Positions 1 to 17,759 of a DNA stretch of 39,350 bases are shown in pieces. The notes below the pieces were generated by a model, which was given only the letters and a program-made list of their open reading frames with translations, had not been told where the DNA came from and did no database searches. The stretch spans positions 1 to 39,350 of the forward strand of contig JACRNN010000204.1 in NCBI GenBank assembly GCA_016234955.1. Direction: 5' to 3'. Each line of letters begins with the position of its first letter. The first letter of the stretch is position 1. Made by a program: the position numbers and the translations under genes. The stretch comes from Deltaproteobacteria bacterium (GTDB lineage: Bacteria > Desulfobacterota > GWC2-55-46).

Positions 1-1
1 C

Positions 2-1747
2 TACAGCCACGCCTCGAACATAAACCGCTACTCCAACCTCATACTCTCCAGATGCCTGCACAGGAGCGAGAAAAAACCGTTATTATGGTACGGGAAAACG
101 TCGCGCGTAGACCACAACTACTCGATAACGCGCAACGTCCTTACGCTGCGCGACGCCGAGGCCTGCAAGAAAGACCCCTCCGCCGTAATCAAGGCGTTTG
201 AATACTCCCAGGCATTCGACGTGGAGATAGACCAGGCCGCAAAGGACCTGATAATAGGGTTCCTCGACGAATCCGACGGCGGCTTCAGGGAATCAAGGGA
301 CGTATCCGACTCATTCCTCAAGATACTCAAGGGCAGGAACGTATACAGGACGCTTCTTGAGATGCACAGGCTCAAGTTCCTCGACAGATACATACCCGAG
401 TTCGAGGAGATAAGCTGCAAGGTCCAGCACGACCTCTATCACATATACACGGTGGACGCGCATACGCTCTTCGCCATAAGGGAGATTGAAAGGCTCAAGG
501 GCGAATACAAGTCCGAGTTCGCGCTCCTTTCAACCATTTACGAAGAGACCCCGAACCCTGAGATACTGATGCTCGCCGTACTCTTCCACGATATCGGAAA
601 GGCCCACGGCAAGGGGCACGCCGAAAAGGGCGCGGCAATGGTCCCCGAGATATGCCGGAGGCTGCACCTCTCCGAAGACGACACCGCCCTCATAAAATTC
701 CTCGTGGAGAACCACCTCATCCTGGCCAACACCGCCCAGTACAGGGACCTCCACGACGAGAAGCTCGTGATCGAGTTCGCCAGAAAGGTCGGCGACATGG
801 AAAGGCTCAACCTGCTTTACCTCCTTACGTTCGCGGACGTGAGGGCGGTGGGCCCGGACGTATGGAGCCAGTGGAAGGGGGCGCTTTTTCAGGAGATCTA
901 CTTCAAGGTGCTGACGGTCCTTGAAAGGGGCACCTTCGAGGTCGTGGAGGCGGGGGCGAAGATCGAGGAGATAAGGCATAGGGTGACGGACCTGCTGGCC
1001 CGGAGCGGAGTAACGGAGGCCGACGTGGACGAGTACTTCGGGCTGCTGCCGCAGAGGTACTTCCTTTCAAACAGCCCGGACTCCATCGCCGGGCACATAG
1101 ACCTCCTTAAAAGGTTCGTCAACGTCCAGTACCTGATGACCGTCAGGCAGGATACCTCCAGAGAGTATACCGAGCTAATCATCTGCACGTACGACGTCCA
1201 CGGGCTCTTCTCCATGATAGCGGGTGTCATGGCCGCCAACGCGGTAAACATACTCGGGGCGCAGATAAACACGCTCAAGAACGGCATAGCGCTCGACATA
1301 CTGCAGGTGAACACGCCCCTCGGGGAGCTCATCACGGACGAAGGGAAGCTCAAGAAGATAGAAAAGGACCTATCGGACGTAATCACCGGCAGGGTCAGGG
1401 TGGCCAATCTCGTCGGCAGGAGAAAACCGTCGATCCTCGACAGGAAGGCCAAGCCCAAGGTAAGGACGACCGTTCAGATAGACAACGACGTCTCGGACGC
1501 CTACACCGTTATAGACATCCATACCCAGAATAGAATCGGGCTCCTCTACGACATTACGTCCACCCTTTCAAGGCTCGGACTCTACATCTACATAGCCAAG
1601 ATATCCACGAAAGGGGAGAGCGCCGCGGACATATTCTACGTAAAGGACATCTTCGGCCAGAAGATATACTATAAGGAGCGGCTCAGGGAGATAGTCGATA
1701 CGCTCTACAACCTCCTGACGGAGAAGGAGCCCGCGGCAAATGGCTGA
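2..1747 (+). CDS. glnD: [Protein-PII] uridylyltransferase/uridylyl-removing enzyme, 5'-truncated by the window
   Basis: Frame is open from base 2 (YSHASNINRY...). Contains QHDLYHIYTVDAH, the HD motif LFHDIGK, LLYLLTFADVRAVGP..W..WK and two C-terminal ACT domains (DVHGLFSMIAG; NRIGLLYDIT...DIFYV). Confidence 0.93.
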   Translation, partial: YSHASNINRYSNLILSRCLHRSEKKPLLWYGKTSRVDHNYSITRNVLTLRDAEACKKDPSAVIKAFEYSQAFDVEIDQAAKDLIIGFLDESDGGFRESRDVSDSFLKILKGRNVYRTLLEMHRLKFLDRYIPEFEEISCKVQHDLYHIYTVDAHTLFAIREIERLKGEYKSEFALLSTIYEETPNPEILMLAVLFHDIGKAHGKGHAEKGAAMVPEICRRLHLSEDDTALIKFLVENHLILANTAQYRDLHDEKLVIEFARKVGDMERLNLLYLLTFADVRAVGPDVWSQWKGALFQEIYFKVLTVLERGTFEVVEAGAKIEEIRHRVTDLLARSGVTEADVDEYFGLLPQRYFLSNSPDSIAGHIDLLKRFVNVQYLMTVRQDTSREYTELIICTYDVHGLFSMIAGVMAANAVNILGAQINTLKNGIALDILQVNTPLGELITDEGKLKKIEKDLSDVITGRVRVANLVGRRKPSILDRKAKPKVRTTVQIDNDVSDAYTVIDIHTQNRIGLLYDITSTLSRLGLYIYIAKISTKGESAADIFYVKDIFGQKIYYKERLREIVDTLYNLLTEKEPAANG

Positions 1748-2654
1748 GACCGGGCTTGAAGATACCTGGGAGCGGCTCGTTGCCGAGTTCCTCGACTACA
1801 TAGTGGTGGAAAAGGGGCTCTCGGACAACACGCGCCTGTCCTACAGCCGGGACCTCATGCGTTTCGCCGCCTTCATGAGGGGCAGGGGTCCGTCCCTCAT
1901 GGACGCCAACGCCGATGACATATCCGCGTTTTTAGGGGAACTCAAGAAAGACGGCCAGTCGGCGCGCTCGTATACAAGGTCGCTCATAGCGATAAGGGGT
2001 TTTTACAGGTACCAGCAGAGAATGGGGAGGCTCAAGGCGTCCCCCTGCGCGTTTGTGGATATACCGAGGTTCACTAAAAGGCTGCCTGAGTTCCTCACGT
2101 TTGACGAGATAGACCGGCTCCTCGGGGCCCCCGGTGAGGACACCGCGCTCGGGCTGAGGGATAAGGCTATGCTTGAGACGCTCTATGCCACGGGGCTCCG
2201 GGTCTCGGAGCTGGTGAGGCTCAGGCTCAATGACCTGAACCTCCAGGGGGGGTATCTGACGGCCTTTGGCAAGGGGTCCAGGGAGCGGCTCGTCCCGATA
2301 GGGGAGTCCGCCATGTACTGGCTCGGACGCTATATGGCGGAATCAAGGCCCTCGCTCCTCAAAGGCAGGATGAGCAACCACCTCTTTGTAACCGCGCGCG
2401 GGACGATGATGACGAGGCAGAACTTCTGGCTCCTGATTAAGAAGGCCGCGCTTGTCGCAGGTATAGAGAGAATGAAGATGAAGCCCCACATCATGCGCCA
2501 CTCCTTTGCCACGCACCTGCTTGAGAGGGGGGCTGACCTCAGGATGGTCCAGGCCATGCTCGGACACGCCGACATCTCATCCACCCAGATATACACCCAC
2601 GTCACGAACGAGAGGCTCAAAGCCCTCCACAGGAAGGGACACCCGAGGGGGTAG
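1740..2654 (+). CDS. xerD: Site-specific tyrosine recombinase XerD
   Basis: 304 aa; EKGLSDNT..SY..DL, RDKAMLETLYATGLRVSEL, GKGSRERLVP, MTRQNFW, PHIMRHSFATHLLE.GADLR.VQ.MLGHADISSTQIYTHV. Overlaps the glnD stop. Confidence 0.93.
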   Translation: MAETGLEDTWERLVAEFLDYIVVEKGLSDNTRLSYSRDLMRFAAFMRGRGPSLMDANADDISAFLGELKKDGQSARSYTRSLIAIRGFYRYQQRMGRLKASPCAFVDIPRFTKRLPEFLTFDEIDRLLGAPGEDTALGLRDKAMLETLYATGLRVSELVRLRLNDLNLQGGYLTAFGKGSRERLVPIGESAMYWLGRYMAESRPSLLKGRMSNHLFVTARGTMMTRQNFWLLIKKAALVAGIERMKMKPHIMRHSFATHLLERGADLRMVQAMLGHADISSTQIYTHVTNERLKALHRKGHPRG

Positions 2655-2737
2655 TAGGCTTCGGGGGGCGCGGGGGGCGGCAGTCAGCGCGCTACATGCT
2701 GTTTTGTCAGGGTTTTGGTCATGGTCTGAACAGGGTC

Positions 2738-2854
2738 TTGAAGCTCCCCGCGGCTTTTCCGCGGGGAATCTTCGATATGTAAGGAAACAATTTCTATTCG
2801 CTCGCTTGATCCCGCAGCTTGGGGCTGGGGAATGCGCTCGCTATGCATACTCAA
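2738..2854. mobile_element. Palindromic non-autonomous element (MITE/REP-like), long copy
   Basis: Runs TTGAAGC...ATACTCAA with a perfect 9-bp hairpin TCCCCGCGG-CTTTT-CCGCGGGGA (2745-2767) and a degenerate second hairpin (~2811-2830). Both ends share 19-bp identical blocks with 4768-4821. Confidence 0.65.
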
Positions 2855-2875
2855 TTGATACCAGCGGGAGGTATT

Positions 2876-2903
2876 ACTTGACATAATATCCATTATGCGA
2901 CAT
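2876..2903 (-). other. dif-like XerC/XerD recombination site
   Basis: Minus strand reads ATGTCGCATAA-TGGATA-TTATGTCAAGT: 11-6-11 architecture, 21/28 identical to E. coli dif GGTGCGCATAATGTATATTATGTTAAAT. Intergenic, at the point where gene orientation converges. Confidence 0.85.
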
Positions 2904-2957
2904 TAAACTTATCCACGAGCCTGCAAGCCCACGTTAAACAGGCCTTCCGGCCTTAGC

Positions 2958-3773
2958 TCAAAGCGTGTCGAAGTAGTGTTTTGCCTCCAACAGGAATATG
3001 TTCTGCGATATTGAGCGCTCCTTGAAGTTCATATACTGCCCGTATGTGGCGCGAAACTCCGTGTTCGGTGACTTGACGTCAAAAGGCCTCCATGCCAGCC
3101 CTCCCTCAAGATGGCTGTTCGTGTTTATGAACTTTATCTCCCCGAAGGCATAGAGCTTTTTGGGATCCTTCAGGATATCGTAGTTGAGGTTCACATCGAA
3201 CAGAATGCCCGGCTTGAACGGTTCGCCGTCCGGCTCCACAAGCTCCTTACTGAAAAAATACCCGGCGGAGGCGTAGCCCCAGAGCCGTTCCCTGTCGAAG
3301 TAATACCTGACGTCGGCCGCGCTCCCGTCCTTGAATCCGGACGGTTTATCAGGGCTTGTGCCCCTGTTCAGATTCGCCAGCGAAATGAGCCATATCCTGA
3401 ACTCGATGTTTTTGTCCTTGAGCGGCCTCATCGCCGCGCCGATTACCAGGTCGTACTCTCTTTTCGTAAAATCGAAACTCCCCTGGTTCAGATTCGTCGT
3501 CACTCCCGGGGTCGGCTTCTCCGTAAAAAAGTCATTGTTGATAAAGGCATAGTACTCCCTGGTGCCTATGTTCAGATTTATCTCCAGACGCATAAGCGGG
3601 TCGTAAACCAGGCCGTTCGGGGCCACGATGTGGCTGTCGAACGGATAAAAGCCTATGCCCGCGTCGCCCCAGGCCCCGGCATAGCATGTGACCGGTAAAA
3701 ACAGCAGAACAACGAAAAATATGATGTAGCCCGTAGAAAACCTTCCAGCCCAAAGCTGATGTTTCGTCGCCAT
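2958..3773 (-). CDS. Hypothetical exported protein, probable outer-membrane beta-barrel
   Basis: 271 aa; hydrophobic signal-like segment IIFFVVLLFLPVTCYAG, alternating aromatic/hydrophobic strands, near-terminal LEAKHYF. Confidence 0.55.
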   Translation of the reverse strand: MATKHQLWAGRFSTGYIIFFVVLLFLPVTCYAGAWGDAGIGFYPFDSHIVAPNGLVYDPLMRLEINLNIGTREYYAFINNDFFTEKPTPGVTTNLNQGSFDFTKREYDLVIGAAMRPLKDKNIEFRIWLISLANLNRGTSPDKPSGFKDGSAADVRYYFDRERLWGYASAGYFFSKELVEPDGEPFKPGILFDVNLNYDILKDPKKLYAFGEIKFINTNSHLEGGLAWRPFDVKSPNTEFRATYGQYMNFKERSISQNIFLLEAKHYFDTL

Positions 3774-3861
3774 ATTCCCGTACCGGTCTTCCTCCTTGAT
3801 TTGGATGCAGAAATACCCGCCGCCTCTCCCGTCGTGTTTCGATATGCATGCAGGGGCCGGT

Positions 3862-4095
3862 TCAGTCTATTATCACGTTCGTCAGGGTCCTCTTGACGTA
3901 GCTCAGGGACTGTATCTTGCTGATGACCACGTCGCCTAAGACCTTGAAGTTCGAGGCGGCCACATGGGCTATTATGTCGTATGGGCCTGTGACCACGCGC
4001 CCGCCCTTGACCCCGCCTATCTTCAGGAGCTTACTCATGACTTCTCTGGACTTCCCATGCTCGCATTCGATAAAGACATAAGCCTCTACAGCCAT
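3862..4095 (-). CDS. Stand-alone Lrp/AsnC ligand-binding (RAM) domain protein
   Basis: 77 aa; AYVFIE..G, VVTGPYDIIAHV, IQSL..V.RT.T; no HTH; GGAGGGG RBS. Confidence 0.85.
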   Translation of the reverse strand: MAVEAYVFIECEHGKSREVMSKLLKIGGVKGGRVVTGPYDIIAHVAASNFKVLGDVVISKIQSLSYVKRTLTNVIID

Positions 4096-4167
4096 AGCCC
4101 CCTCCGTTAATGTTTGATATTTATTATGATGTTTTCCCGATAAACATTTGAAAACAATCTTTGAATA

Positions 4168-4680
4168 TCAGACATGAAAGATGTTGCGATGGCAGTCCAC
4201 ACAGGTCGCCTTGCCTGATTTCATGCTTGCATGGGCGGCCCTGCCGAACTCCGTTGAAGGTTTTGGCGCCTTGTGGCAGGTCCTGCATGACGCGCTGTCC
4301 CAGGACCTGATAGACTCCCTCGCCCTCGCGGCGAACTCCTCCCTGTGCGCGTCAAAGGCCTCTTTCGTGCCGAGGTCATATCTGAACTCGCTGATAATGT
4401 CCCTTACCCCCTCAACGATATGGGTCTTGACCTTTTGAGGGAACCAGGGCGGGAAATGGCAGTCCCTGCATTCAGGGTTTATACCGAGCGTCCCGTAGTG
4501 CCTCGACCTCTTGAGGGCTTCATACGGGTAGCTCATGGAGTGGCAGGATAGGCAAAACCCGGTGGAACTGAAGTACCTCTCGGCTGAAAACACCGCGTAA
4601 GCCGCGGCGAACACGATAACGGCTGTAACAACAATAATCCTTCCTTTCCCTTTATGCATCATTCCGGGCATCTCTACCAT
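4168..4680 (-). CDS. NapC/NirT-family membrane-anchored tetraheme cytochrome c
   Basis: N-terminal TM helix, then four heme motifs CLSCH(SM), CRDCH, CRTCH, CVDCH with NapC-like spacing. Start may be a few codons downstream. Confidence 0.88.
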   Translation of the reverse strand: MVEMPGMMHKGKGRIIVVTAVIVFAAAYAVFSAERYFSSTGFCLSCHSMSYPYEALKRSRHYGTLGINPECRDCHFPPWFPQKVKTHIVEGVRDIISEFRYDLGTKEAFDAHREEFAARARESIRSWDSASCRTCHKAPKPSTEFGRAAHASMKSGKATCVDCHRNIFHV

Positions 4681-4767
4681 GTTTTTATATCGACCCGCGT
4701 ATTTAGCTTACCAGATTTTCCCCGGTTTACAAGGGTCTCTCTTGATTATCTACGCCCTGCGGTAAGT

Positions 4768-4821
4768 TTGAAGCTCCCCGCGGCTTGGGCTTAGGAGAAT
4801 GCGCTCGCTATGCATGTTCAA
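4768..4821. mobile_element. Short, internally deleted copy of the TTGAA...TTCAA element
   Basis: TTGAAGCTCCCCGCGGCTT and GAATGCGCTCGCTATGCAT are identical to the ends of 2738-2854; 5-bp terminal inverted repeat TTGAA/TTCAA. Confidence 0.65.
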
Positions 4822-4856
4822 AAGAAAAGGGGCCACGAAAAAACTCGCAACCCCTT
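4821..4856 (-). terminator. Probable intrinsic terminator after tRNA-Arg
   Basis: Minus strand: 12-bp stem AAGGGGTTGCGA / TCGTGGCCCCTT (with G-U pairs) around a short T-rich loop, followed by TTCTTT. Confidence 0.65.
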
Positions 4857-4864
4857 GATTTTCT

Positions 4865-4941
4865 TGGCGCCCCCGAGACGATTCGAACGTCCGGCACACG
4901 GATTAGGAATCCGTTGCTCTATCCTACTGAGCTACGGGGGC
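4865..4941 (-). tRNA. tRNA-Arg(CCT)
   Basis: GCCCCCGTAGCTCAGTAGGATAGAGCAACGGATTCCTAATCCGTGTGCCGGACGTTCGAATCGTCTCGGGGGCGCCA: 7-bp acceptor stem, anticodon arm ACGGA-TTCCTAA-TCCGT, T-loop TTCGAAT, encoded CCA. Confidence 0.97.
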
Positions 4942-4961
4942 GTGGAATTTTTAAGAGTAAT

Positions 4962-4990
4962 AATTTATCAAAAACGTTGTCCGCTGTCAA
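4962..4990 (-). promoter_or_regulatory. Sigma70-type promoter for tRNA-Arg
   Basis: Minus strand TTGACA-N17-TAAATT, about 20 nt upstream of the tRNA 5' end. Confidence 0.7.
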
Positions 4991-5058
4991 TCTCTTAATA
5001 ACACGCCCCGAAGCAAACCGCGGGGTAAATGAGGGCGTCTTTGTCGGGCCCGGCCTCT

Positions 5059-6282
5059 TCAGATGATTATCCCGCCCGCCACCGGATACCCGGCGTGTTC
5101 GAGTACGAACCTGCCCGTCTCCGGGATATCCGAGAAGCTGTCCACCGCCACCGGCCTGTCAAGCCTTATCTCCACCTCGGCGACCTCGGCCGGCTTTATC
5201 GTGGACGCGTCGTTTTCGACAATCTCCACCGAGGCCGGGTCGAACCTCCTGTATATCTTCTCGATCCTGCCCTTTACCTCCTGCGTGGCGCACTTGAACG
5301 TGAGAGGGACCCCGAGCTTGTAGTCCTTGTCCACCATCCAGAAGATGTTCGCGCGCACCGAGTCCGTTATAGTCGAAGTCACCGCATCGACGATTATATC
5401 GCCCCTTTTAAGGCCGTCACCCTCTACGCGTATCCCTATGCACTCCGTGGCCTGGGCCTCGGTCAGCCCGTCTTCGAGGAACTTCCTTATCTCAAGCACT
5501 CTCGCGGCAGCCTTGCCTGGCAGGATGAAGACGTCCTGCCCTTTCCTCAGGACGCCTGCCTCCACGCGCCCCACGGCTATCTCGCCGCCGTCCAGGTCGT
5601 ACATGTCCTGCACCGGGAACCTGAGCCCCTTTTCCTCCACCTTCAACGCCCTGAAACTGTCGAGGGCCTGCAGCACCGTAGGGCCCTGATACCAGGAGAG
5701 GTTTTCCGTCTTTTTCGCGACGTTCTCGCCCTTGATGGCCGAGATGGGTATGACGTAAGCGGGGGATATGTTCAGGCGGCCGAGGACCGAGGATATCTCA
5801 TTCTCTATGGACCTGAAGGCCTCCTCGGAGTATCCGGCGAGGTCCATCTTGTTTACGAGCACGGCGACCTGCCTGACGCCGAGGAGCCCGAGTATGTAGC
5901 AGTGCCTCAATGTCTGCTCCCGGATGCCCTGGCTGATGTCCACAAGGAGGATCGCCGCCTCGGCCTGGGAGACTCCGCTTATCATGTTCTTCAGGAACTC
6001 CTTGTGCCCCGGCGCGTCGATAATCACGTACCTCCTCTTTTCGGTTGAGAAGAAGGTATGGGCTATGTCTATGGTTATGCCCCTCTTCCTCTCCTCCTCG
6101 AGGTTGTCCATCATGAACGCGAACTCGACGTCCTTGCCTTGAAGCGTTGACGCCTTTTTTATCTCATCGAGCTTCTCCGGCGGCAGCGACCCTGTGTCAT
6201 AAAAGAGCCTGCCCACGAGCGTGGATTTGCCGTGGTCGACGTGGCCGACTATGACTATATGAAGGGACTTCTCTTCCATCAT
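5059..6282 (-). CDS. cysN: Sulfate adenylyltransferase GTPase subunit, without APS kinase domain
   Basis: [27 protein letters not shown] motifs and EF-Tu-like domains II/III; ends GRFVL...VAGGII; adjacent to cysD. Confidence 0.88.
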
Positions 6283-6360
6283 TCAATCCTCCTCACTCCT
6301 CGACGCCTTGCATCCGAATCTTTTTGAGCAGCCTGAACAACTTGAGTTTCTCGGCAACCC

Positions 6361-7164
6361 CTACATGTACCCGAGCGACCGGAGCTTCTGCATCGTATAT
6401 GCGTCCTCCTTGTCCTGCGCCCTGCCGGCGCGCTCGGAGGTCTTTGTGGTCTTGAGCTCCTCTATTATCTCGTCCACGCTTGAGGCCTGAGACTCGACCG
6501 GGCCGCAGCAGGGCGCGCAACCTATCGACCTGTACCTCTTGCCTTCCTTGCTGAAGTAGAGCTCGGTCACCGGGATATTCTCCCTTTTTATGTACTCCCA
6601 TATGTCGAGCTCGGTCATGTGGAGTATGGGGTGGATTCTGAAGTGGTTGTCCTCTTCGGTGGTGGATTTGAACTGGTCCCATAGCTCGGCCGGCTGGTCC
6701 TCGTAGTTCCATTTGAAGTCCACGTCCCTCGGGGAAAACACCCTCTCCTTCGCCCTTATCCCGTGCTCGTCCCTCCTGATGCCGAGCAGGAGCGCCTTGA
6801 AGCCGCGCCTGGCTATGGTCTGCTTGAGGGCGTTCGTCTTGAGCTCGTTGCAGCAGTCGAGCTTTGCCCCCTTTGAAGGCCCCATGCCGGCGGCCACCTG
6901 GCCCTCGTTGCGCCCGATTATCAGGTCGAGGCCCCACTTCTTCGCGTACTCGTCCCTGAACCTGTACATCTCCGGGAATTTGTAGGTCGTGTCTATATGG
7001 ATGACGGGGAAGGGTATGCGTCCGAAGAACGCCTTCCTGCAGAGCCAGAGGAGCGTCGTCGAGTCCTTGCCCACGGACCAGAGCATGGCGATGTCCCTGA
7101 ACCTGCTGTACGCCTCGCGTATGATGAATATGCTCCTGTTCTCAAGTTCGGTCAGATGGTCCAT
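6361..7164 (-). CDS. cysD: Sulfate adenylyltransferase catalytic subunit
   Basis: LENRSIFIIREA, PP-loop WSVGKDS, HIDTTYKFPE, GIRRDE..RAKER.FSPR, RIHPIL, YRSIGC.PC, SERAGRAQDKE. Confidence 0.93.
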   Translation of the reverse strand: MDHLTELENRSIFIIREAYSRFRDIAMLWSVGKDSTTLLWLCRKAFFGRIPFPVIHIDTTYKFPEMYRFRDEYAKKWGLDLIIGRNEGQVAAGMGPSKGAKLDCCNELKTNALKQTIARRGFKALLLGIRRDEHGIRAKERVFSPRDVDFKWNYEDQPAELWDQFKSTTEEDNHFRIHPILHMTELDIWEYIKRENIPVTELYFSKEGKRYRSIGCAPCCGPVESQASSVDEIIEELKTTKTSERAGRAQDKEDAYTMQKLRSLGYM

Positions 7165-7203
7165 CCAGGTTACCCTCTCCTTTAATCGAATATCATAGTT
7201 TAA

Positions 7204-8565
7204 TCAATTACCCTTGAAATTATCAAGTATTAAATCCGTGAGACGCTCTATATGAAGCCTTTGGGAAGGGTTTACCCCGGCCGGGAGTATGCAGTGCGCG
7301 TCGTGTCTCGTGTGCATGCCCATGAAGTGGGTTCTGCCGAAGACCTCGTTCTTCTTAAGGTTCCCCTTGAGGTCATACCCGTCGTTGCCGACGCAGACCA
7401 GGTCGGGGCCCCGGAGGGCCGCGGGGCCGCTGTATAATTCGCGGTTCTCATAGACCCTTTTTATCACCTTGCTTCCGTCGGTATCGGTCATAGCCTCGAG
7501 CGCGGACCTTATCTCCGCCGCGGTTCTCTCTACATCTTGCTCCTTGACGCTCCCAAAGGGGTATCTCTTCTCCGCGTTGATATATATGCGCGCCGGGTCC
7601 ATGGCAAACGCCCTTGATCCGTCCTCCACCTGCTCGTAGTACTCCCTGCCGGAGTTCAGGGTCAAAAAATTATTTTCCCTCAGCCAGGCGTTGACGTAGA
7701 CCTCTTTTTTTATCGGCGTGAATCCGTGGTCCGACATGGTCATGAAAAACCCCTTGCCGTTGGTCTTTGACATGAAGCGCTCAAAGAGCCTCCCTATGGC
7801 CGAGTCCATCTCCCTGTAGAACGACACGAACCTCTCATGGTACCTGTGGGACGCGTCCCTCGCGGCGTCGAAGAAGAAGTGGTGTATCCTGTCGGTCTCG
7901 GTGATGACGCCTATGAAGAGCCCCCAGTCCGGCTCGTCAAGGTAATGCTCGAAGGCCTCCACGCGCTTCTTTAGAGCTAAAAAGGCGTCGTCGAAGAACT
8001 CATCGGGCTTATCCGCCGCCTTTGCCGCGTCTATGTCCGGCATGTACCCTATGGAACTCAGGTAATCGTAGGCGGCCTCCGGGTACGTCCCCTTCCTGAA
8101 GTCCGGGCAGACGAACCCGGCGGTCAGCACCCCGTTCATGGGCCTTGCCGGAAAGGTCTGCGGGACGTTAAGGACGATAGACCTTACGCCCCTGTTGATG
8201 CTACCCCCGCGCCTCTCAAATAGGGTCGAGGTCTTTGCCCCCGCCGTGCCGCCGAGCATCTCCCAGACCGTTGGGGCCAGGACGTTGTCGAAGCTCGGGA
8301 AGCTCATCCTGTAACTCCCCTCTTTCAGCTCCATGAAGCCGTATATGCCGTGCTCTCCGGGGTTTACCCCCGTCATGAAAGATGCCCATGACGTGGACGA
8401 TACGTCTGGGATAGAGGCGTCCATCTGGTTGAGCGTAAAGCCGCTCGACAGTATGGAGCCTATGTTAGGCAATATGCCCGCCTCCGCGTACTCCTTCATG
8501 AGGGTGTAGGGCGCACCGTCTATGCCTATTACGAATGCCTTTTGTTCATCCATATCAGATGCCAT
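7204..8565 (-). CDS. Alkaline-phosphatase superfamily (nucleotide pyrophosphatase/phosphodiesterase-like) protein, cytoplasmic
   Basis: VIGIDGAP, nucleophile region SIPDVSSTSWASFMTGVNPGEHGIYGF, TDRIHH, MSDHGF, GMH; no signal peptide. Confidence 0.85.
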   Translation of the reverse strand: MASDMDEQKAFVIGIDGAPYTLMKEYAEAGILPNIGSILSSGFTLNQMDASIPDVSSTSWASFMTGVNPGEHGIYGFMELKEGSYRMSFPSFDNVLAPTVWEMLGGTAGAKTSTLFERRGGSINRGVRSIVLNVPQTFPARPMNGVLTAGFVCPDFRKGTYPEAAYDYLSSIGYMPDIDAAKAADKPDEFFDDAFLALKKRVEAFEHYLDEPDWGLFIGVITETDRIHHFFFDAARDASHRYHERFVSFYREMDSAIGRLFERFMSKTNGKGFFMTMSDHGFTPIKKEVYVNAWLRENNFLTLNSGREYYEQVEDGSRAFAMDPARIYINAEKRYPFGSVKEQDVERTAAEIRSALEAMTDTDGSKVIKRVYENRELYSGPAALRGPDLVCVGNDGYDLKGNLKKNEVFGRTHFMGMHTRHDAHCILPAGVNPSQRLHIERLTDLILDNFKGN

Positions 8566-8577
8566 CGTTTCCTTTGA

Positions 8578-10692
8578 TCACCCTTCCTTTTCGATTTTGC
8601 AGAGTAGCCCGCGTAGCTGGTACGAGCCGAACGCCGGGTCATACGGGGGGCCGTTGTCAGTCAGCACGTTGGCGTTCGACTCGAACGCGCCGTATAGAGG
8701 GCCGTCCCTCTCCGGGAACCACCATCCGTGCTCGACGCTCGCCACGCCGGGGTGGATTTCCTCGGTCACAAGGGCCTTCATCCTGATAGCGCCCCTGCGC
8801 GTGGAAACCCTCACCCACTCGCCGTTTGATACCCCGCTCCTCCGTGCCGCGTCCGGGTGGAGTTCCACCTGCGGGTCTGGCCGGAGCCTCCTCAGTGAAT
8901 CCACCTGCCTGTGCTCGCTGTGGAAGAACTCCGGCCTGCGGCTGCCGGTGATGAGTATGAGCGGAAATTCCTCCGCGATATCCGGCGCTGAGACCGGGCC
9001 CTCAGGGGGCTCCTTGAACGTCGGCAGGGGGCCGTAGCCCATCCTCTGCAGCGTCTTTGAATATAGCTCGACCTTCCTTGAAGGGGTTCTGAACCCTTGC
9101 TTCTCATACCTCCTGTACTCATGCGGAGGGAAGATGAAGGTCTTTTTCTTCAAATCATCGAAGTTTACGCCGAGCGGCTCGAGCTGGTGGTTTATCACGT
9201 CCTCGATGGTATCCCAGGCGCCGGGCAGCCCGAGCCTCTTTGACAGCTCGTTCATTATCCACTCGTCCTGCATGGACTCGTGGTGGACGGTTATCCTCTG
9301 CTGCGCCATCACCATGTTCTCAACGACGAGCGGGTACCCGATGGCCTGATCGACCTCTGTCCAGAAGGCCGCGGGCAGGACGTAGTCCGCGTGCGCGGCG
9401 GTCGGGGTCATGAAAAGGTCCGTTACCGCGAGGAGGTCGAGCTTCTTGATGCCCTCGTAGACCTCTTTCGAGTTTGCCACGGACGTTAGCGCGTTGTTGC
9501 CGAATATCAGCAAAGCCCTCACGCGGTAGGGGTCGCCCTCCCTCATGGCCCTGAAGAGCGCGGGGATGTGGGCGGACGGCATGAAGGCCCTCCAGCCCCC
9601 GAGGAGCTTGAACTCATCGGCCCCGAGCCGCTTCTTTAGCGCCCCCTCCGGGAGCTTGTCCTTCAAGGTCGGGTAGCTCCTTATGATGTTCATCCCGAGG
9701 ATGTCCCCGCCGGGAACGTCGAGGTTGCCGGTTATGGCGCGAAGTATGGCGAGCGCCCTCACGGTCTGGAGCGAGTTTGGGTTCTGCTCTATGCCGAGAC
9801 CCCATTCGAGTATGGCGGGCTTATTAAGCGCATAAGTCCTGGCCGCCGTTATTATCGCTGAAGCGGGGACGGTGGTGACGGACCCTGCCCACTCGGGGGT
9901 GAATGGCGCGACGTGGTTTTTAAGCTCCTCGAACCCGGTTGTCCATCTCTCGACGAACTCCCTGTCGTATATCCCCTCGGCGATTATCACGTTTATCATC
10001 GCGAGGGCGAGGGCGGCGTCCGTGCCGGGCCTGACCGGGAGCCACTGGGCGCACCTTCGGGCCGTCTCGCTCCTCCTCGGGTCTACGGAGATCGCCGCGC
10101 ACCCGGTGTCGAGCGCGCGCTTGACCGAAGGCGCTATCTCGCCGTCAGGCCCTGAGACTAACGGGTTGTGGCCCCAGAAAAGGATGCACCGGGGAGAGAC
10201 CTCGCCGTAATAATCGCCGACCACGAAGCCGCCGTAGGTCAGGTTGCTTACGGTTATCCTCGGGATGAAGCACTGCGCAAGGCCCGGTTCGTACCAGTTG
10301 GGGGTGCCGAGCGCGTTAGCGAACCTCACCACGTGCATGTAGTGGTGGCGTCCCGTGCCCTGCCCGATGGCGATGGATTCCGGCCCTGATTCCCCTCTTA
10401 TCCCGTCTATCCTGCCCGCTATCTCGTTCAGCGCGTCGTCCCACGAAAGCCTCTGCCACTGGCCGTCTCCCCTGCCCTTCTTCCTCTTCATCGGGTATTT
10501 GAGGCGGTCCGGGTGGTTTGCTATATCCGGGGACTTCACCCCCTTGACGCACATCCAGCCCCTGTTCATGGGGGAGTCCGGGTCGCCCTTCACGCTTACT
10601 ACGCGCCCGTCCTTTACGTGGACGAATACGCCGCACCCTCCGTGGCAGACCCTGCACACGCTCCTGAATGTCTTTTCGTTGCCGTCGTTCAT
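8578..10692 (-). CDS. Mo/W-bisPGD oxidoreductase, acetylene-hydratase-like branch
   Basis: 704 aa; N-terminal 4Fe-4S motif CRVCHGGC...CVKG, DRLKYPMKR, LFWGHNP, PGTDAALALA, ADYVLPAA, C-terminal molybdopterin-binding domain FFHSEHRQ...VELHP; no Tat signal. Confidence 0.88.
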   Translation of the reverse strand: MNDGNEKTFRSVCRVCHGGCGVFVHVKDGRVVSVKGDPDSPMNRGWMCVKGVKSPDIANHPDRLKYPMKRKKGRGDGQWQRLSWDDALNEIAGRIDGIRGESGPESIAIGQGTGRHHYMHVVRFANALGTPNWYEPGLAQCFIPRITVSNLTYGGFVVGDYYGEVSPRCILFWGHNPLVSGPDGEIAPSVKRALDTGCAAISVDPRRSETARRCAQWLPVRPGTDAALALAMINVIIAEGIYDREFVERWTTGFEELKNHVAPFTPEWAGSVTTVPASAIITAARTYALNKPAILEWGLGIEQNPNSLQTVRALAILRAITGNLDVPGGDILGMNIIRSYPTLKDKLPEGALKKRLGADEFKLLGGWRAFMPSAHIPALFRAMREGDPYRVRALLIFGNNALTSVANSKEVYEGIKKLDLLAVTDLFMTPTAAHADYVLPAAFWTEVDQAIGYPLVVENMVMAQQRITVHHESMQDEWIMNELSKRLGLPGAWDTIEDVINHQLEPLGVNFDDLKKKTFIFPPHEYRRYEKQGFRTPSRKVELYSKTLQRMGYGPLPTFKEPPEGPVSAPDIAEEFPLILITGSRRPEFFHSEHRQVDSLRRLRPDPQVELHPDAARRSGVSNGEWVRVSTRRGAIRMKALVTEEIHPGVASVEHGWWFPERDGPLYGAFESNANVLTDNGPPYDPAFGSYQLRGLLCKIEKEG

Positions 10693-10710
10693 ATTCTCTG
10701 TTTATATATT

Positions 10711-10789
10711 CTTGTGGTGGCAGGAGTTTCCTCCTGCCACCCTATTTAACAAACCACAAGTCGCCGTCAGGAGGAAACTCATGACGGCG
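10711..10789. repeat. REP-like inverted hairpin doublet
   Basis: GGTGGCAGGAG-TTTC-CTCCTGCCACC (10716-10741, perfect 11 bp) and CGCCGTCAGGAG-GAAA-CTCATGACGGCG (10762-10789, 11/12). Shared core CA(G/T)GAGTTTCCTCCTG in opposite orientations. Confidence 0.7.
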
Positions 10790-10803
10790 CTGAAAATTAC
10801 TAT

Positions 10804-11778
10804 TTATTTACGCCCCCCGCGCGCCACACCCCAGAGCGCCCCGAGCCCGATTGACACGGCTCTCAGAAAAAGCAGCGCCGGAGAGACAACGGCCACTGCC
10901 GGGTCCTTGCGTAAGGCCGTTAGAAAAAAAGGCGTTGACAGGGCGAGAAAAAAGCCCCCCGCCAAAACGAATAGGAGCAACCCGTATGCGGGGAAGAGCA
11001 GGCCCACAGGCAGGCACGCCCCAATCATCATGGCGGCTAATATCTGGAACTTGAGCGTCTGGGGGGTGTATGTGTCCTTGAGCATCTTGTCCGGGAACCT
11101 CTTGTACACGACCATCCTCCAGTACCCCCTCCAGAACTTGAGCCTCGCGTACCTCTTGATCGAGTCCGGGTGGTTGAGGTGGCATACCACGGCCCGCGGG
11201 TTGAAGACCATCCTGTGCCCTGAGCTTGAGAGCCTGTAGGACAGCTCCGTATCCTCGTTGTTGGGCGCCGGAAAGCCCGTGTCAAAGCCGCCCGCCACGT
11301 CAAAGACCTCTTTCCTGAAGGCGGCCGAATAGGTATCGACCATGTCGATGGAGGGGGCCGCCTTCAGCATCTCGAACCTCTCCTCGAACTCGATCTGCGA
11401 GAACCGCGCCACTATGCCTGGCTGTAGAGTCCTGTACGCGCCCTTGACCGCCGAGACCGACGGGTCGGCAAAAGGCCTTGCCATCTCCTTTATCCAGTCG
11501 CTCTCCGGGACGCAGTCCGAGTCGGTAAAGAGGATTATCCCGCCCCTTGCCTCCCTCGCCCCCGCGTTCCTCGCGGCGGCCGGACCGAGGTTTCTCTGCC
11601 GGATGCACTTGACGGAGTAGCCCTTGACGATCAGCGGCGTGGAATCCGTGGATCCGTCGTCCACAACGATGACCTCGTAGCGTCCCTTCCCTACGGTCTG
11701 GTCCCGGAGCGAGCCGAGGCACTTATCTATCGTCCTTGCGGCGTTGTACGCCGGAACTATGACGGAAAACTCTATCAT
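10804..11778 (-). CDS. GT2 family glycosyltransferase with C-terminal TM helices
   Basis: SVIVPAYNA, VVDDGSTD, GPAAARNAG, FTDSDC, NEDTELSYRL; hydrophobic C-terminus. Confidence 0.92.
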   Translation of the reverse strand: MIEFSVIVPAYNAARTIDKCLGSLRDQTVGKGRYEVIVVDDGSTDSTPLIVKGYSVKCIRQRNLGPAAARNAGAREARGGIILFTDSDCVPESDWIKEMARPFADPSVSAVKGAYRTLQPGIVARFSQIEFEERFEMLKAAPSIDMVDTYSAAFRKEVFDVAGGFDTGFPAPNNEDTELSYRLSSSGHRMVFNPRAVVCHLNHPDSIKRYARLKFWRGYWRMVVYKRFPDKMLKDTYTPQTLKFQILAAMMIGACLPVGLLFPAYGLLLFVLAGGFFLALSTPFFLTALRKDPAVAVVSPALLFLRAVSIGLGALWGVARGGRK

Positions 11779-11782
11779 CCGC

Positions 11783-13243
11783 TCACGTGCTCTGGAGCCT
11801 TGAGCCGCGTATCAGGTATTTGGCGAAGGTCCGGAGGGACTTAAGCGTCCTTCTTATCTCCCTCGGGTGCGCTATCATCTGGGATAATTTATAGAGGATA
11901 TAGCCCGGCCTCAGATAGAACTCCCTCCTCGCGTCGTCGCAGAACCTGACAAGCTCCTCGGCGCTCAACTCCTCTGTCCTTATGACGGTATTGTGGAGCC
12001 CCTCCTGGGTTATCCATTCGGAGAAGTCCGAGCTCCTTATGAGGCCCCTCTGCCTGTACCAGTCGTACGCCTCGGTGCCGGGGTAAACCATCACCGGGTA
12101 GAACTGGACGGTATCGGGGTTGAGGCCCTTTGCGAGGTCGAGGGTCTGCTTGAGCGTCTGCCTCGTCTCGCCGGGGAGCCCGGCCATGAAGCATCCGTGT
12201 ATGAGCATACCGGCCCTCCTGGCGTTGTCCATGAACCCCTTCATCTCCGCGACCTTCGTCTTCTTCTTCATGTTGTCGAGTATCGTCTGGCTACCGCTCT
12301 CAAAGCCGACGCAAAGGGAGCGGCACCCGGCCTCTCTCATCAGGCGCATGGTGTCGTAATCTATCCCTATCCTCGAATTCGCCGTCCAGGATATCTTTAT
12401 CCCCTTCTTGATTATCAGCTCGGACAGGGCCCTGCACCTCTTCTTGTCCACCGTAAGGGTGTCGTCCTCGAAAAAGACCGCCTTTGCCTGTGGGAAGTTC
12501 TCGACGATGTACTCCATCTCCTCCACCACGTTCTCAACGGACCTCAACCTGTAGCCCCTGCCCATGAGCGTCTGAGGGTAGACGCAGAATGTGCACGGGA
12601 ACGGGCACCCCCTGCTCGTCGTTATCGTCACCATCGGGAATAGCGCGTTCGGGTTGAAGTAGTTCTCTATGCGCAAGAACTTCCTGTAGACCTTGCTCAC
12701 GAACGGCAGTGTGTCGAGGTCGTCGAGGAACGGCCTTTTGGGGGTATTGACGAGGGAGCCGTCCTTGAGGTAGCTTATGCCGGGCACGATTCTAAAGTCC
12801 CCTTTTTTCTCAAGCGCTCCGGCTACCTCCACCACGGTCTGCTCGTACTCGTAGCGCGCAACGGCGTCGATCCTCTTGTCGAGCTTGAGCGTCTCTGCCG
12901 GGAGCGCCGAGACGTGTGTGCCAACGAGGAGCACGAACGCCGACGGGCGCTCGTCCTTGAGGCGGCCTCCCACAGCGACGTCGTTATTGATAGACGGCGT
13001 GGAGGTGTCCATCACTATGAGGCCGGGGTTGAAGACTCTCGCCCTCTTAACGACGTCCTCTACGGTCAATCCGTCGGCCGGCGCGTCTATGAAGTCGACC
13101 TCGAAGCCCTTGTCCATGGCCGCGCCCGCGGCGTAGGCGAGCCACATCGGGAAGTAGAGCGTCCCGCTCTTTGTGACGGCCGGGCTCCTCTGCGGCCGGG
13201 AGAACTTCTTCAGAAACGGCGGGTTCAAAAACAGTATCTTCAT
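11783..13243 (-). CDS. Cobalamin-binding radical SAM enzyme, HpnJ-like
   Basis: MKILFLNPP..., YFPMWLAYAA, DTSTPS, RGCPFPCTFC, FFEDDT, VGFESG, GCFMAGLPGET, YPGTE. Confidence 0.88.
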   Translation of the reverse strand: MKILFLNPPFLKKFSRPQRSPAVTKSGTLYFPMWLAYAAGAAMDKGFEVDFIDAPADGLTVEDVVKRARVFNPGLIVMDTSTPSINNDVAVGGRLKDERPSAFVLLVGTHVSALPAETLKLDKRIDAVARYEYEQTVVEVAGALEKKGDFRIVPGISYLKDGSLVNTPKRPFLDDLDTLPFVSKVYRKFLRIENYFNPNALFPMVTITTSRGCPFPCTFCVYPQTLMGRGYRLRSVENVVEEMEYIVENFPQAKAVFFEDDTLTVDKKRCRALSELIIKKGIKISWTANSRIGIDYDTMRLMREAGCRSLCVGFESGSQTILDNMKKKTKVAEMKGFMDNARRAGMLIHGCFMAGLPGETRQTLKQTLDLAKGLNPDTVQFYPVMVYPGTEAYDWYRQRGLIRSSDFSEWITQEGLHNTVIRTEELSAEELVRFCDDARREFYLRPGYILYKLSQMIAHPREIRRTLKSLRTFAKYLIRGSRLQST

Positions 13244-14484
13244 CAGACCACTTCCCTCGTTATTTTATCGTACTGCCTGATCTGCTCCGCCATGAAGCCG
13301 AGCTCACCCTTGAATTCTATGGCCTTGGTCGGGCACGCAAGGAAGCAGTACTGGCATCCTATGCACCCGTTGTCCCTGTCCTCGATCGTCTGCGGGAGCT
13401 TGAGCTCCACGGGGCAGTAGTCCGCGCACCTGGTGCACCCCTTCTCGCAGAGCTCTCTCTTCCACTTGAACCCCTCGAACCTCATCTCGTCCTTTATGAA
13501 GTTGTCCTGCCGGAGCCCCGTTAAAAAGAGCATCTTCCCGAACGCCTCCGTGGAGCAGAGGTAGTTGAAGGCCGCGGTGTTCCGCACGGCGAGGAAGTAC
13601 TTCTGGCGCCTGGGGCTGTGGATGAAGGAGGCGAAGGCGTTGGCTATCGGCTCCTTGAACTTCTTCTTGACGCCTTCGAGGTCGAGCGCGTCGGCGAACT
13701 CGCGGTGGCGAGCGGTCAGCAGGCCATGGTCTTCGGCGGCCTTGAGGGTGCGCACCTTCCTGTAATCGAAGTCCGCGATCCTCGCGCAGACGAGGTCTAT
13801 GAGATATGGGTCGACCCCGAATATGACGACCCCGGTGCGAAGCGGAGTGCCCCTCGTAGGCCCGAGCCCCTCCATGGCGATAAGGCCGTCGACGATGTGG
13901 AGGTGCGGCTTAATCCTCTTATTTATGTTAAGTATGTTCCTGGCGAGGGACCCGTGGGTCTTTTTCTTGTTCTCCTGGCCTACAAGGCACCCCATCATGT
14001 TCTTGAGGCAGACCGTCATGCCGGCCTCGAAGTGGGTCTTGAGCTTCGGCATGTTTATGAAAAAATCGGCCTCCACGCACTCCTTCGCCACCGAGGCCTT
14101 GACGCCGTCCTCGAAATCGACGCTTACGGTCTCGGAGTAGTTGAGGTCGGCTATCTTGACACCGTAATGCCTGGCGAGCCTGTCGTAGGAGAGCCTTGAG
14201 ATGACGCTTATGCCGTTCCTGTAAAAGCCGCTGTTGGTGCCCTCGGCCACCGTGATGTCGGAATAGCCGTAGCCCTTGAGCGCCTTTATGACCGCGGCCA
14301 CGAGCCTCAAATCCGTGGTGTTGCCTGTGAGCGCGTTCATGTTGCTGTTCATGTTCGGCTTTATGAGTATCCGCGCCGACCTCGATGCGGGCAGTATGTC
14401 GCGGTACCTTTCGAGCGTATCCGCAACTGCCTTTACTATGTCCTTGATCGAGTATGCCTTTACTATATCAAGCCTTGGACCCAT
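13243..14484 (-). CDS. DUF362 protein fused to a C-terminal 2x[4Fe-4S] ferredoxin domain
   Basis: ILIKPN, AEG, INMPKLKTH, LKNMMG, IVDGLIAMEG.GP; C-terminal CEKGCTRCADYCP and CIGCQYCFLACP. Start moved to ATG 14484 (RBS GGAGAAGGA). Confidence 0.83.
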   Translation of the reverse strand: MGPRLDIVKAYSIKDIVKAVADTLERYRDILPASRSARILIKPNMNSNMNALTGNTTDLRLVAAVIKALKGYGYSDITVAEGTNSGFYRNGISVISRLSYDRLARHYGVKIADLNYSETVSVDFEDGVKASVAKECVEADFFINMPKLKTHFEAGMTVCLKNMMGCLVGQENKKKTHGSLARNILNINKRIKPHLHIVDGLIAMEGLGPTRGTPLRTGVVIFGVDPYLIDLVCARIADFDYRKVRTLKAAEDHGLLTARHREFADALDLEGVKKKFKEPIANAFASFIHSPRRQKYFLAVRNTAAFNYLCSTEAFGKMLFLTGLRQDNFIKDEMRFEGFKWKRELCEKGCTRCADYCPVELKLPQTIEDRDNGCIGCQYCFLACPTKAIEFKGELGFMAEQIRQYDKITREVV

Positions 14485-16646: not shown

Positions 16647-16836
16647 AGGGTGCCTCCAAAAATCAGATATTTTTCCGAGGTCGAGGCGGGGTGAATGAAA
16701 CCACCCCGGGCTTAAAGCCCCATGAGGTTTCAGAACGCTGAAATAAAAAAGCGGAGCATATATGCTAATATGTGTCCATTTTTATTTTCGCCCCAACAAA
16801 GAGATCGGGAAAAAGAGCAATTTTTAGAGGCACCCT
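16647..16836. mobile_element. 190-bp MITE-like element
   Basis: Terminal inverted repeats AGGGTGCCTCCAAAAAT (16647-16663) and ATTTTTAGAGGCACCCT (16820-16836), 16/17 match, extending imperfectly to ~36 bp. Internal palindrome AGCATATATGCT; no transposase. Confidence 0.75.
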
Positions 16837-17759
16837 TCTTCCACTATGAGCATCCCCGGCGAATACCTGTCGAGAAAATGCATGTAGCCCGGGTGCATGG
16901 ATACGTAGCGCTCCAGCCTTGCAACGAATTGGCGCGTGGAATCCGCGGCCTTTTCCTCACCCTCAAGCTTGGAGGTTATAGGCCGTTCTATTATTATTTT
17001 ATACGGTTTTTTCCCGCCAGGCACGATAAAAAGAGGGATGAGCGCCGAGCCGTTCTTCTGCGCCAGCAGCGCCGGCCCGACGGGGAACATGACCCGGTTT
17101 CCGAGGAACTCAAAGGCCTTGTGCCTGCCCACGCGCGTCCCGGTGCCGCTGCCGTCGCCGGTTATCATTATGACGCCGTTGTCGTTGAGCCATTTGAACG
17201 CGTTCCTCAAAAACGAATCCGCCTTGATTATCTCGGCCGGCATCATCGACTCGTACCTGAGCCTCAGCCTGAAGGCGACGTTCCTGCCTGTCCAGCTCAA
17301 ACCCTCGTCCGATGGCAGCCCTATCTGCTTCATCCTGTAGCCCAGACGCGCGAGCGCCACAAGCGGCAGGTGTACCGGGCCGAAGTGGCCGTGGACAAGG
17401 ACGACCCCCCTGCCCTCCTTGAGCGCGTTGTCGAGGTTTTCGAGCCCCTCTATATCCACGAGCCTCTTGACGCGCCTTGCGTCGAGCCTGGGGAATATGA
17501 ATATGAGGAGGCGGTCGATGTAGTGGTTCCTGAAGTATTCCCTCGCGGCTTTGCCCCGGTCGGTGGAGACCCCGCGCATGCGCGCGAGATTTTTGCCGAG
17601 GAGTTCCTTCTTGCCGCCGGAAAACGCGTAGTGGAGGTCGCCTAAGAGCCTCATTATGGCGATCCCCAGGGAGACCGGCGACGCTAATATTATCCACCGG
17701 AGCGGGAACCATACGATGAGCCTCAGTATGTCCCGCCGTATGGACTCCCTCACCTCCAT
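16824..17759 (-). CDS. LpxL/PatA-like lysophospholipid acyltransferase family protein
   Basis: IEGLENLDNALKEGRGVVLVHGHFG, ITGDG, FEFLG..VMFPVGPALLA, LERYV..HP. Confidence 0.85.
   Translation of the reverse strand: MEVRESIRRDILRLIVWFPLRWIILASPVSLGIAIMRLLGDLHYAFSGGKKELLGKNLARMRGVSTDRGKAAREYFRNHYIDRLLIFIFPRLDARRVKRLVDIEGLENLDNALKEGRGVVLVHGHFGPVHLPLVALARLGYRMKQIGLPSDEGLSWTGRNVAFRLRLRYESMMPAEIIKADSFLRNAFKWLNDNGVIMITGDGSGTGTRVGRHKAFEFLGNRVMFPVGPALLAQKNGSALIPLFIVPGGKKPYKIIIERPITSKLEGEEKAADSTRQFVARLERYVSMHPGYMHFLDRYSPGMLIVEEGCL

Follow-up and report, generated by a model that had tools for sequence, protein, structure and literature searches.

The 28-bp sequence at positions 2876-2903 is very probably the dif site of the chromosome and the core of a canonical XerC/XerD system, the location of xerD directly beside it being an inherited synteny that probably has no function of its own. 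Positions are those of the window, i.e. the whole stretch of 39,350 nucleotides that was analysed, which corresponds to one entire contig of a MAG of 2.08 Mb (299 contigs, 79% complete, 5.6% contamination). Judged from its sequence, the site is a canonical dif of known type, and its sole unusual trait is its immediate proximity to xerD across an uncultured order.

The dif site and its conservation

On the minus strand, positions 2876-2903 read ATGTCGCATAA-TGGATA-TTATGTCAAGT (28 bp), the plus strand being ACTTGACATAATATCCATTATGCGACAT. The reverse complement of the plus strand is the sequence that had been quoted at these positions in a preliminary description of this DNA, and the identity of 21/28 bases to E. 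coli dif given there was recovered, with 7 differences from the E. coli K12 sequence of PMC2731167 (Table 1). These identities are distributed as 9/11 in the predicted XerD-binding arm (2876-2886, minus strand, TTATGTCAAGT), 5/6 in the central region where strand exchange takes place (2887-2892, minus strand, TGGATA) and 7/11 in the predicted XerC-binding arm (2893-2903, minus strand, ATGTCGCATAA). The XerD arm is proximal to xerD and nearly invariant in the class, and GTCGCATAA in the XerC arm is conserved across the order. Most of the order has TGGATA as central region, replaced in some families by TGTATA, TATATA or GATATA. The arms form perfect inverted repeats at their inner ends (CATAA and TTATG), which gives the site a partial dyad symmetry around its 6-bp centre, while the outer positions differ between the two arms and are conserved within each, as expected for two different binders.

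The site is intergenic, located between xerD (ending at 2654) and orf271 (ending at 2958), and its G+C content is 9/28, compared with 0.574 for the genome. The gap between the stop codon of xerD and dif was measured at about 222 bp, in line with the approximately 220 bp given previously.

When up to 3 mismatches to the 28-mer were allowed, the window gave a single match and 100 shuffles gave none. A search of the genome for other copies, suggested in the preliminary description, gave no other sequence within 8 mismatches in the 299 contigs of the MAG (79% complete); within 9 mismatches, the sole extra matches were two sequences with 9 mismatches each, on contigs C46 and C143. Among 41 related genomes, 33 carried the 28-mer with at most 3 mismatches (30 of them in exactly one copy), and a reversed control pattern matched none. 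Of the 96 genomes of the class, 79 matched a slightly degenerate pattern, mostly in a single copy, and 17 gave no match to it. On these comparisons, the 28-mer is considered as the single conserved dif of the lineage.

Position of the replication terminus

Since the MAG is too fragmented for a whole-genome skew analysis, relatives were used to locate the terminus. In the closed genome G007 (a single contig of 2,751,635 bp), dnaA is located at 26.6 kb and the only dif at 1,377,179, so that the two are separated by 49% of the chromosome. GC skew computed on 20-kb samples of this genome was positive from 0.14 to 1.14 Mb (9/9 samples) and negative from 1.40 to 1.98 Mb (5/5 samples). The cumulative skew, computed on 400 contiguous kb, forms a plateau of 180 kb (approximately 1.20-1.387 Mb) followed by a steady fall; dif corresponds to the right shoulder of this plateau (value 1517), and the global maximum (1556) is found at 1,250,857, i.e. 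126 kb to the left. In G061 the cumulative skew peaks 1.8 kb from dif. The skew of G004 changes sign at dif, with a mean of +0.021 on the left versus -0.036 on the right, and the cumulative maximum is 32 kb away. The site is thus at or near the turn of the GC skew in three relatives, and opposite dnaA in the closed genome. The reading of this site as the chromosomal terminus, one of the two proposed in the preliminary description, is supported by these relatives. In the window itself, the skew to the left of dif, where only 2.9 kb are available, is close to zero or weakly positive, and that to the right is negative. The genes of the window converge on dif.

The orientation of GGGNAGGG, which we take to be the motif that orients FtsK in E. 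coli (KOPS), was also considered. In 799,916 bases around dif from three relatives (G/C ratio of 1.06), this motif was found 192 times pointing toward dif and 43 times pointing away from it. GGGCAGGG alone, which is among the most skewed octamers, gave 105 occurrences toward dif versus 22 away in the same three relatives. In the window, 12 occurrences of GGGNAGGG point toward dif and 2 away. Part of this bias may be due to gene orientation and to the G-richness of the leading strand.

Linkage between xerD and dif

For the counts of linkage, dif places and XerD places were cross-matched by hand, and two genomes with a partial xerD were settled separately. In the order to which the window belongs (families f1-f8, 66 dif-bearing genomes), dif is located 11-316 bp 3' of xerD in 50 genomes, and in all 50 the XerD arm faces xerD. 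Eight other genomes have 0.6-3 kb between xerD and dif, and one (G008) has a xerD-dif distance of 51 kb with an inverted orientation; the last 7 genomes were not classed for linkage, because of contig breaks by the site or because no xerD was found. Where the gap between xerD and dif reaches 1.8-3 kb (L091 in G009, L092 in G021 and L094 in G037), the intervening genes are not the same from one genus to another: G009 has a gene for a 524-aa protein there, and G037 has two ORFs (270 and 381 aa).

Outside this order, xerD was on the same contig as dif in none of the 13 dif-bearing genomes from other orders of the class, and no xerD was found within 3 kb on either side of dif in five outgroup genomes. 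In the other classes of the phylum, a dif-like site was present within 1.5 kb in 0/30 XerD loci, using a scan that could miss sites having more than 9 mismatches and departing from the core regular expression. The preliminary description had called a xerD-dif linkage unusual and had proposed to examine the synteny of the region in relatives: the counts (50/66 in the order, 0/13 in its sister orders, 0/30 in the rest of the phylum) agree with this view. Among the matches listed by a phrase search of the literature, none reported xerD next to dif in a system with two recombinases; such a report may exist.

Two further matches came from individual loci. In L175, the regular expression matched within the coding sequence of xerD, and this match was considered spurious. 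Among six distant XerD loci (L107-L112), a dif-like site was found only in L109, which comes from a MAG labelled Myxococcota and encodes a XerD with 47% identity; the site is at 3556-3583 of this locus, 180 bp after xerD, and no glnD is present upstream. This locus may be an independent case of xerD-dif linkage.

The gene upstream of xerD in the window is glnD, encoding the PII uridylyltransferase (2-1747, plus strand; TIGR01693, E-value 2e-134; HD and ACT domains), the 5' end of which is cut by the start of the contig. In the dif loci of 47 relatives, glnD adjoins xerD in 35 cases, xerD is within 1.5 kb of dif in 40 cases and an AsnC-type gene is within the same distance in 24 cases. The corresponding gene of the window (3862-4095, minus strand) encodes a 77-aa protein with an AsnC/Lrp ligand domain (PF01037) and represents the conserved gene next to dif on the side of the other replichore. 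The glnD-xerD pair was also found, without dif, in the outgroup families f9 and f10, which implies that the gene pair is older than the linkage and that the terminus came to lie behind the pair in the ancestor of the order. The linkage would thus have arisen once, by movement of the terminus behind an older glnD-xerD pair.

The adjacency of xerD and dif is therefore an inherited synteny of the order, in which glnD-xerD on one side and the asnC-like gene on the other side both point to dif. Its persistence is probably due to the stability of the local neighbourhood as a whole and not to a function of its own; as both flanks of dif are fairly stable, plain inherited synteny is favoured over a special function.

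It is unlikely, if conceivable, that the linkage is instead kept by selection, xerD and dif forming a functional unit within a two-recombinase system. Reasons for such a selection might be a local supply of XerD, a dosage or timing of xerD that depends on the terminus, or a guard against separation of gene and site by rearrangements of the terminus, and we regard these as doubtful. The extent of the adjacency (50 of 66 dif-bearing genomes, over 8 families) would fit such a unit, as would the higher frequency of xerD than of the asnC-like gene near dif (40/47 versus only 24/47 loci), the fact that the inserts which interrupt the pair differ from genus to genus, and the independent case in the Myxococcota-labelled MAG. 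However, dif is located at the 3' end of xerD and not at its promoter, and the asnC-like side is also kept in half of the genomes, so that the stability of the neighbourhood explains much of the pattern. Moreover, the sister orders and all of the 30 XerD loci sampled in the phylum manage without linkage, and several genera of the order itself tolerate 0.6-51 kb between xerD and dif. In its most developed form, this explanation would consider xerD-dif as a selected two-part unit, intermediate between the scattered XerCD systems and the XerS or XerH modules, with XerD made at the terminus and timed by it, and with the flanks of the unit acting as recurrent landing pads (for the orf271 segment described below, for the IMEX, or Xer-exploiting mobile element, of G005 and for the cargo of other genera). 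Such a unit seems improbable to us, and inherited synteny is retained as the explanation of the adjacency.

Recombinases and FtsK

The xerD gene (1740-2654 including the stop codon, plus strand) encodes a tyrosine recombinase of 304 aa that reaches 360 bits on the equivalog model TIGR02225 (cut-off of 329.6). The same protein scores 290 bits on the XerC model, below the cut-off of 335, and 90.9 bits on the XerS model NF003462, the cut-off of which is 267. Comparison with the structure of E. coli XerD (1A0P) gave a full-length alignment with 279.7 bits, in which the R, K, HxxR, H and Y motif residues are identical. Transcription of xerD runs toward dif, and xerD is the last gene of its replichore. 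An FtsK gamma domain (PF09397, 88.4 bits) was found in a 720-aa frame on contig C200 of the MAG.

No xerC was found in the 79%-complete MAG, in which the other PF00589 matches are phage-type or broken integrases. A second full-length Xer-like gene is nevertheless present in most of the relatives listed. In the congener G001 and in G007, the only two genomes for which it was scored on both models, its product obtained 297-308 bits on the XerC model TIGR02224 versus 263-275 bits on the XerD model. Over the relatives, scores of the second Xer genes range from 297 to 336 bits, against a strict XerC cut-off of 335.15 that only 1 of 41 genomes passes. The conserved recombinase motifs are present in the second Xer protein of G001. 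In both G001 and G007 the gene is found in the order lepA-xerC-hslV-hslU. In the MAG, contig C277 (1,830 bp) contains the final part of lepA at 97% identity and extends 368 bp past this gene before it ends, and xerC, hslV and hslU are all missing from the assembly. Because C277 breaks where lepA-xerC-hslVU continues in G001, and because hslV and hslU are missing as well, the absence of xerC is considered as an assembly gap; relatives and the contig break beside lepA together indicate that xerC is presumably present in this organism. Looking for xerC in the genome, as had been proposed, thus gave a mixed outcome, i.e. none in the MAG itself and a XerC-like gene in relatives, located between lepA and hslVU in G001 and G007.

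The preliminary description had raised the possibility of a XerD-only system. In such a system, comparable to XerS/difSL or XerH/difH, XerD would occupy both arms and resolve dimers alone, and the adjacency would reflect a self-contained module. The gene does adjoin the site as in the XerS and XerH systems (PMC2731167, PMC5357621, as far as the available text of these papers goes), and the lack of a xerC in the MAG points in the same direction. This candidate was nonetheless rejected, and its probability appears very small: a second full-length Xer gene is found in most relatives including G001 and G007, in which it matches the XerC model best; C277 ends 368 bp past lepA, precisely where xerC-hslVU follows in G001, so that the xerC segment falls in a gap of the assembly; the outer positions are not the same in the two arms, each of which is conserved; the central region has the canonical 6 bp; and the recombinase passes the XerD equivalog while obtaining 90.9 bits, against a cut-off of 267, on the XerS model.

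The canonical XerC/XerD reading implies, by homology, the following steps. XerC would bind the ATGTCGCATAA arm and XerD the TTATGTCAAGT arm. FtsK, steered by polar motifs of the GGGNAGGG type, would pair the two dif sites of a chromosome dimer at the septum, and its gamma domain would activate XerD for a first strand exchange across TGGATA. XerC would then resolve the junction, giving two monomers.

The system closely resembles XerC/XerD-dif-FtsK of E. coli (and CodV/RipX-dif of B. subtilis), with the same 11+6+11 organisation of the site and a single copy at the terminus. A XerD equivalog, an FtsK gamma domain, a XerC-like paralog (in relatives) and GGGNAGGG-type motifs pointing to the site are all shared with E. 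coli. Unlike in E. coli and B. subtilis, most of the order has xerD at 11-316 bp from dif. The two recombinase genes of the classical systems are scattered over the chromosome, and linkage is described only for XerS and XerH in the available text of PMC2731167; the contrast drawn in the preliminary description, with XerC/XerD genes away from dif and XerS/XerH genes adjacent to it, is consistent with that text. XerS/difSL (streptococci, lactococci) and XerH/difH (Helicobacter, Campylobacter) share with the present system a recombinase gene beside the terminal site (PMC2731167 and PMC5357621, in the portions available). The xerS gene adjoins its site, difSL being a 31-bp sequence with an 11-bp centre according to the accessible part of PMC5357621, and difH is given as a 40-mer similar to difSL in Table 2 of PMC2731167. 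The present system differs from both by its canonical 6-bp centre and by the XerC-like second recombinase of relatives. Sites predicted in Desulfovibrio vulgaris, Geobacter sulfurreducens and Syntrophus aciditrophicus (PMC2731167, Table 1) have arms very similar to those described here, for example ATGTCCCATAATGTAAATTATGTTAACT in D. vulgaris. In the parts of PMC2731167 at hand, no xer linkage is reported for delta-proteobacteria, the distances to xer genes being tabulated for epsilon-proteobacteria only.

Regions flanking dif

A weak terminator-like hairpin followed by a T-run is present after xerD (2685-2701, plus strand), which is a hint only as such sites are no commoner in the sequence than in shuffles. 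Further into the xerD-dif spacer, positions 2738-2854 are one copy of a structured dispersed repeat of approximately 117 bp, recognised by sequence matches across the MAG. At least 100 bp of this repeat were found in 110 copies on 87 contigs of the MAG, with a median identity of 80%. Its predicted minimum free energy is about -44 kcal/mol, and a half copy is present at 4777-4821. This repeat looks REP-like or MITE-like and probably contributes to the fragmentation of the assembly. The spacing between xerD and dif is 11-130 bp in most relatives and would be about 100 bp in the window without the repeat, the insertion of which thus accounts for the long spacer. No known RNA was found in the spacer by a scan of the whole window with Rfam gathering thresholds, the sole match being a tRNA gene at 4868-4941 (minus strand), approximately 2 kb from dif and beside the variable NapC/NirT segment. 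A different family of repeats (approximately 100-155 bp), first found at 1186-1341 of contig C55 of G001, is represented at 16741-16842 of the window and by about 35 matches in the MAG.

On the other side of dif, a lineage-specific segment of 954 bp (2908-3861, minus strand) carries orf271 (2958-3773) and is absent from the congener G001. Homology between the window and G001 ends 4 bp past the XerC arm; G001 has 149 other bases at this place, after which the AsnC-type gene is found in both. The product of orf271 matched no Pfam, NCBIfam or PHROG family, and has a hydrophobic stretch at its N-terminus. Of 40 other relatives, a single one had a homologue, at a different place of its genome. Two more segments of the region are absent from G001, namely 4150-4851, which contains a NapC/NirT cytochrome gene (4168-4680), and 5183-6992 (1.8 kb), which contains a gene for a CysN-like GTPase and part of a PAPS-reductase/CysD-like gene.

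Logan contigs of four runs were compared with positions 1-9000 of the window. Contigs from the same runs display both forms of the region, the congener form being revealed by joints 2907->3862 and 5182->6993; repeat-driven joints were also found. No element joined through dif was found over positions 1-9000 in these contigs, which cannot reveal rare variants. As the orf271 segment is lineage-specific and lies beside the XerC arm, some recombination at or near dif has happened.

Contigs end at most 96 bp past the XerC arm of dif in 6 of the 47 relatives (L011, L012, L025, L126, L145 and L148), and in 3 other relatives a contig end is found within 190 bp on the xerD side of the site. These contig ends suggest that assembly graphs branch at dif, and that the sampled populations display structural variation there.

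A prophage at dif in a related genome

In the relative G005, the order is xerD, 1.9 kb, a second site (dif'), a block of 10 kb, a perfect dif, and then, as in the window, the AsnC-type and NapC/NirT genes. The XerD arm and the centre of dif' are intact and its XerC arm is degenerate, and dif' and the perfect dif are in direct orientation. The element corresponds to positions 4212-14326 of locus L090 (G005:C17:18000-34000). The block carries genes for a packaging ATPase, an SLT transglycosylase, an HTH repressor and a protein in which the PM2-type coat domain PF25513 was recognised, and no integrase was found in it. From this gene content and these boundaries, the element is identified as a putative dif-type tailless (double-jelly-roll) IMEX prophage of an uncultured groundwater lineage, and the same dif thus appears to be used by an integrase-less prophage in a relative. 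Double-jelly-roll (PM2-like) prophages of the dif type and other IMEXs are described in Vibrio (PMC12715192, in its available portion). Like these PM2-like prophages, the 10-kb element of G005 is bounded by a degenerate dif' on one side and by a perfect, regenerated dif on the other; unlike the Vibrio IMEXs of that text, it belongs to an uncultured groundwater host and is known from sequence alone, and it is found in a relative and not in the window.

That the 28-mer itself might be an attL or attR scar of such an IMEX, with the true dif elsewhere, recalls the att-site alternative of the preliminary description, and is highly improbable: the 954-bp orf271 segment that begins 4 bp past the XerC arm and that the congener lacks, the IMEX integrated at the same dif in G005 and the contigs of 6/47 relatives that stop at most 96 bp from the XerC arm would be compatible with a scar, but no second dif-like site was found with up to 11 mismatches in positions 1-8000 of the window or with up to 8 mismatches elsewhere in the MAG, the site occupies the same place in the same orientation after xerD, as the only dif, in 50 genomes of the order, and orf271 matches no family of phages or mobile elements. 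With no second dif-like site, the orf271 segment is not a recognisable IMEX.

Significance for the lineage

The 28-mer, taken as the dif of the chromosome, marks the replication terminus and the site of dimer resolution for an uncultured class of groundwater bacteria (recorded as Deltaproteobacteria or Thermodesulfobacteriota). The linkage of a recombinase gene to its site is, taken alone, no sign of a single-recombinase Xer system; if the linkage proved to be selected, it would bear on the origin of modules of the XerS and XerH type. The site also emerges as a place of assembly breaks in these organisms and as an entry point for accessory DNA, a tailless prophage among it. The glnD-xerD-dif arrangement provides a simple anchor for orienting and closing the fragmented MAGs of this class.
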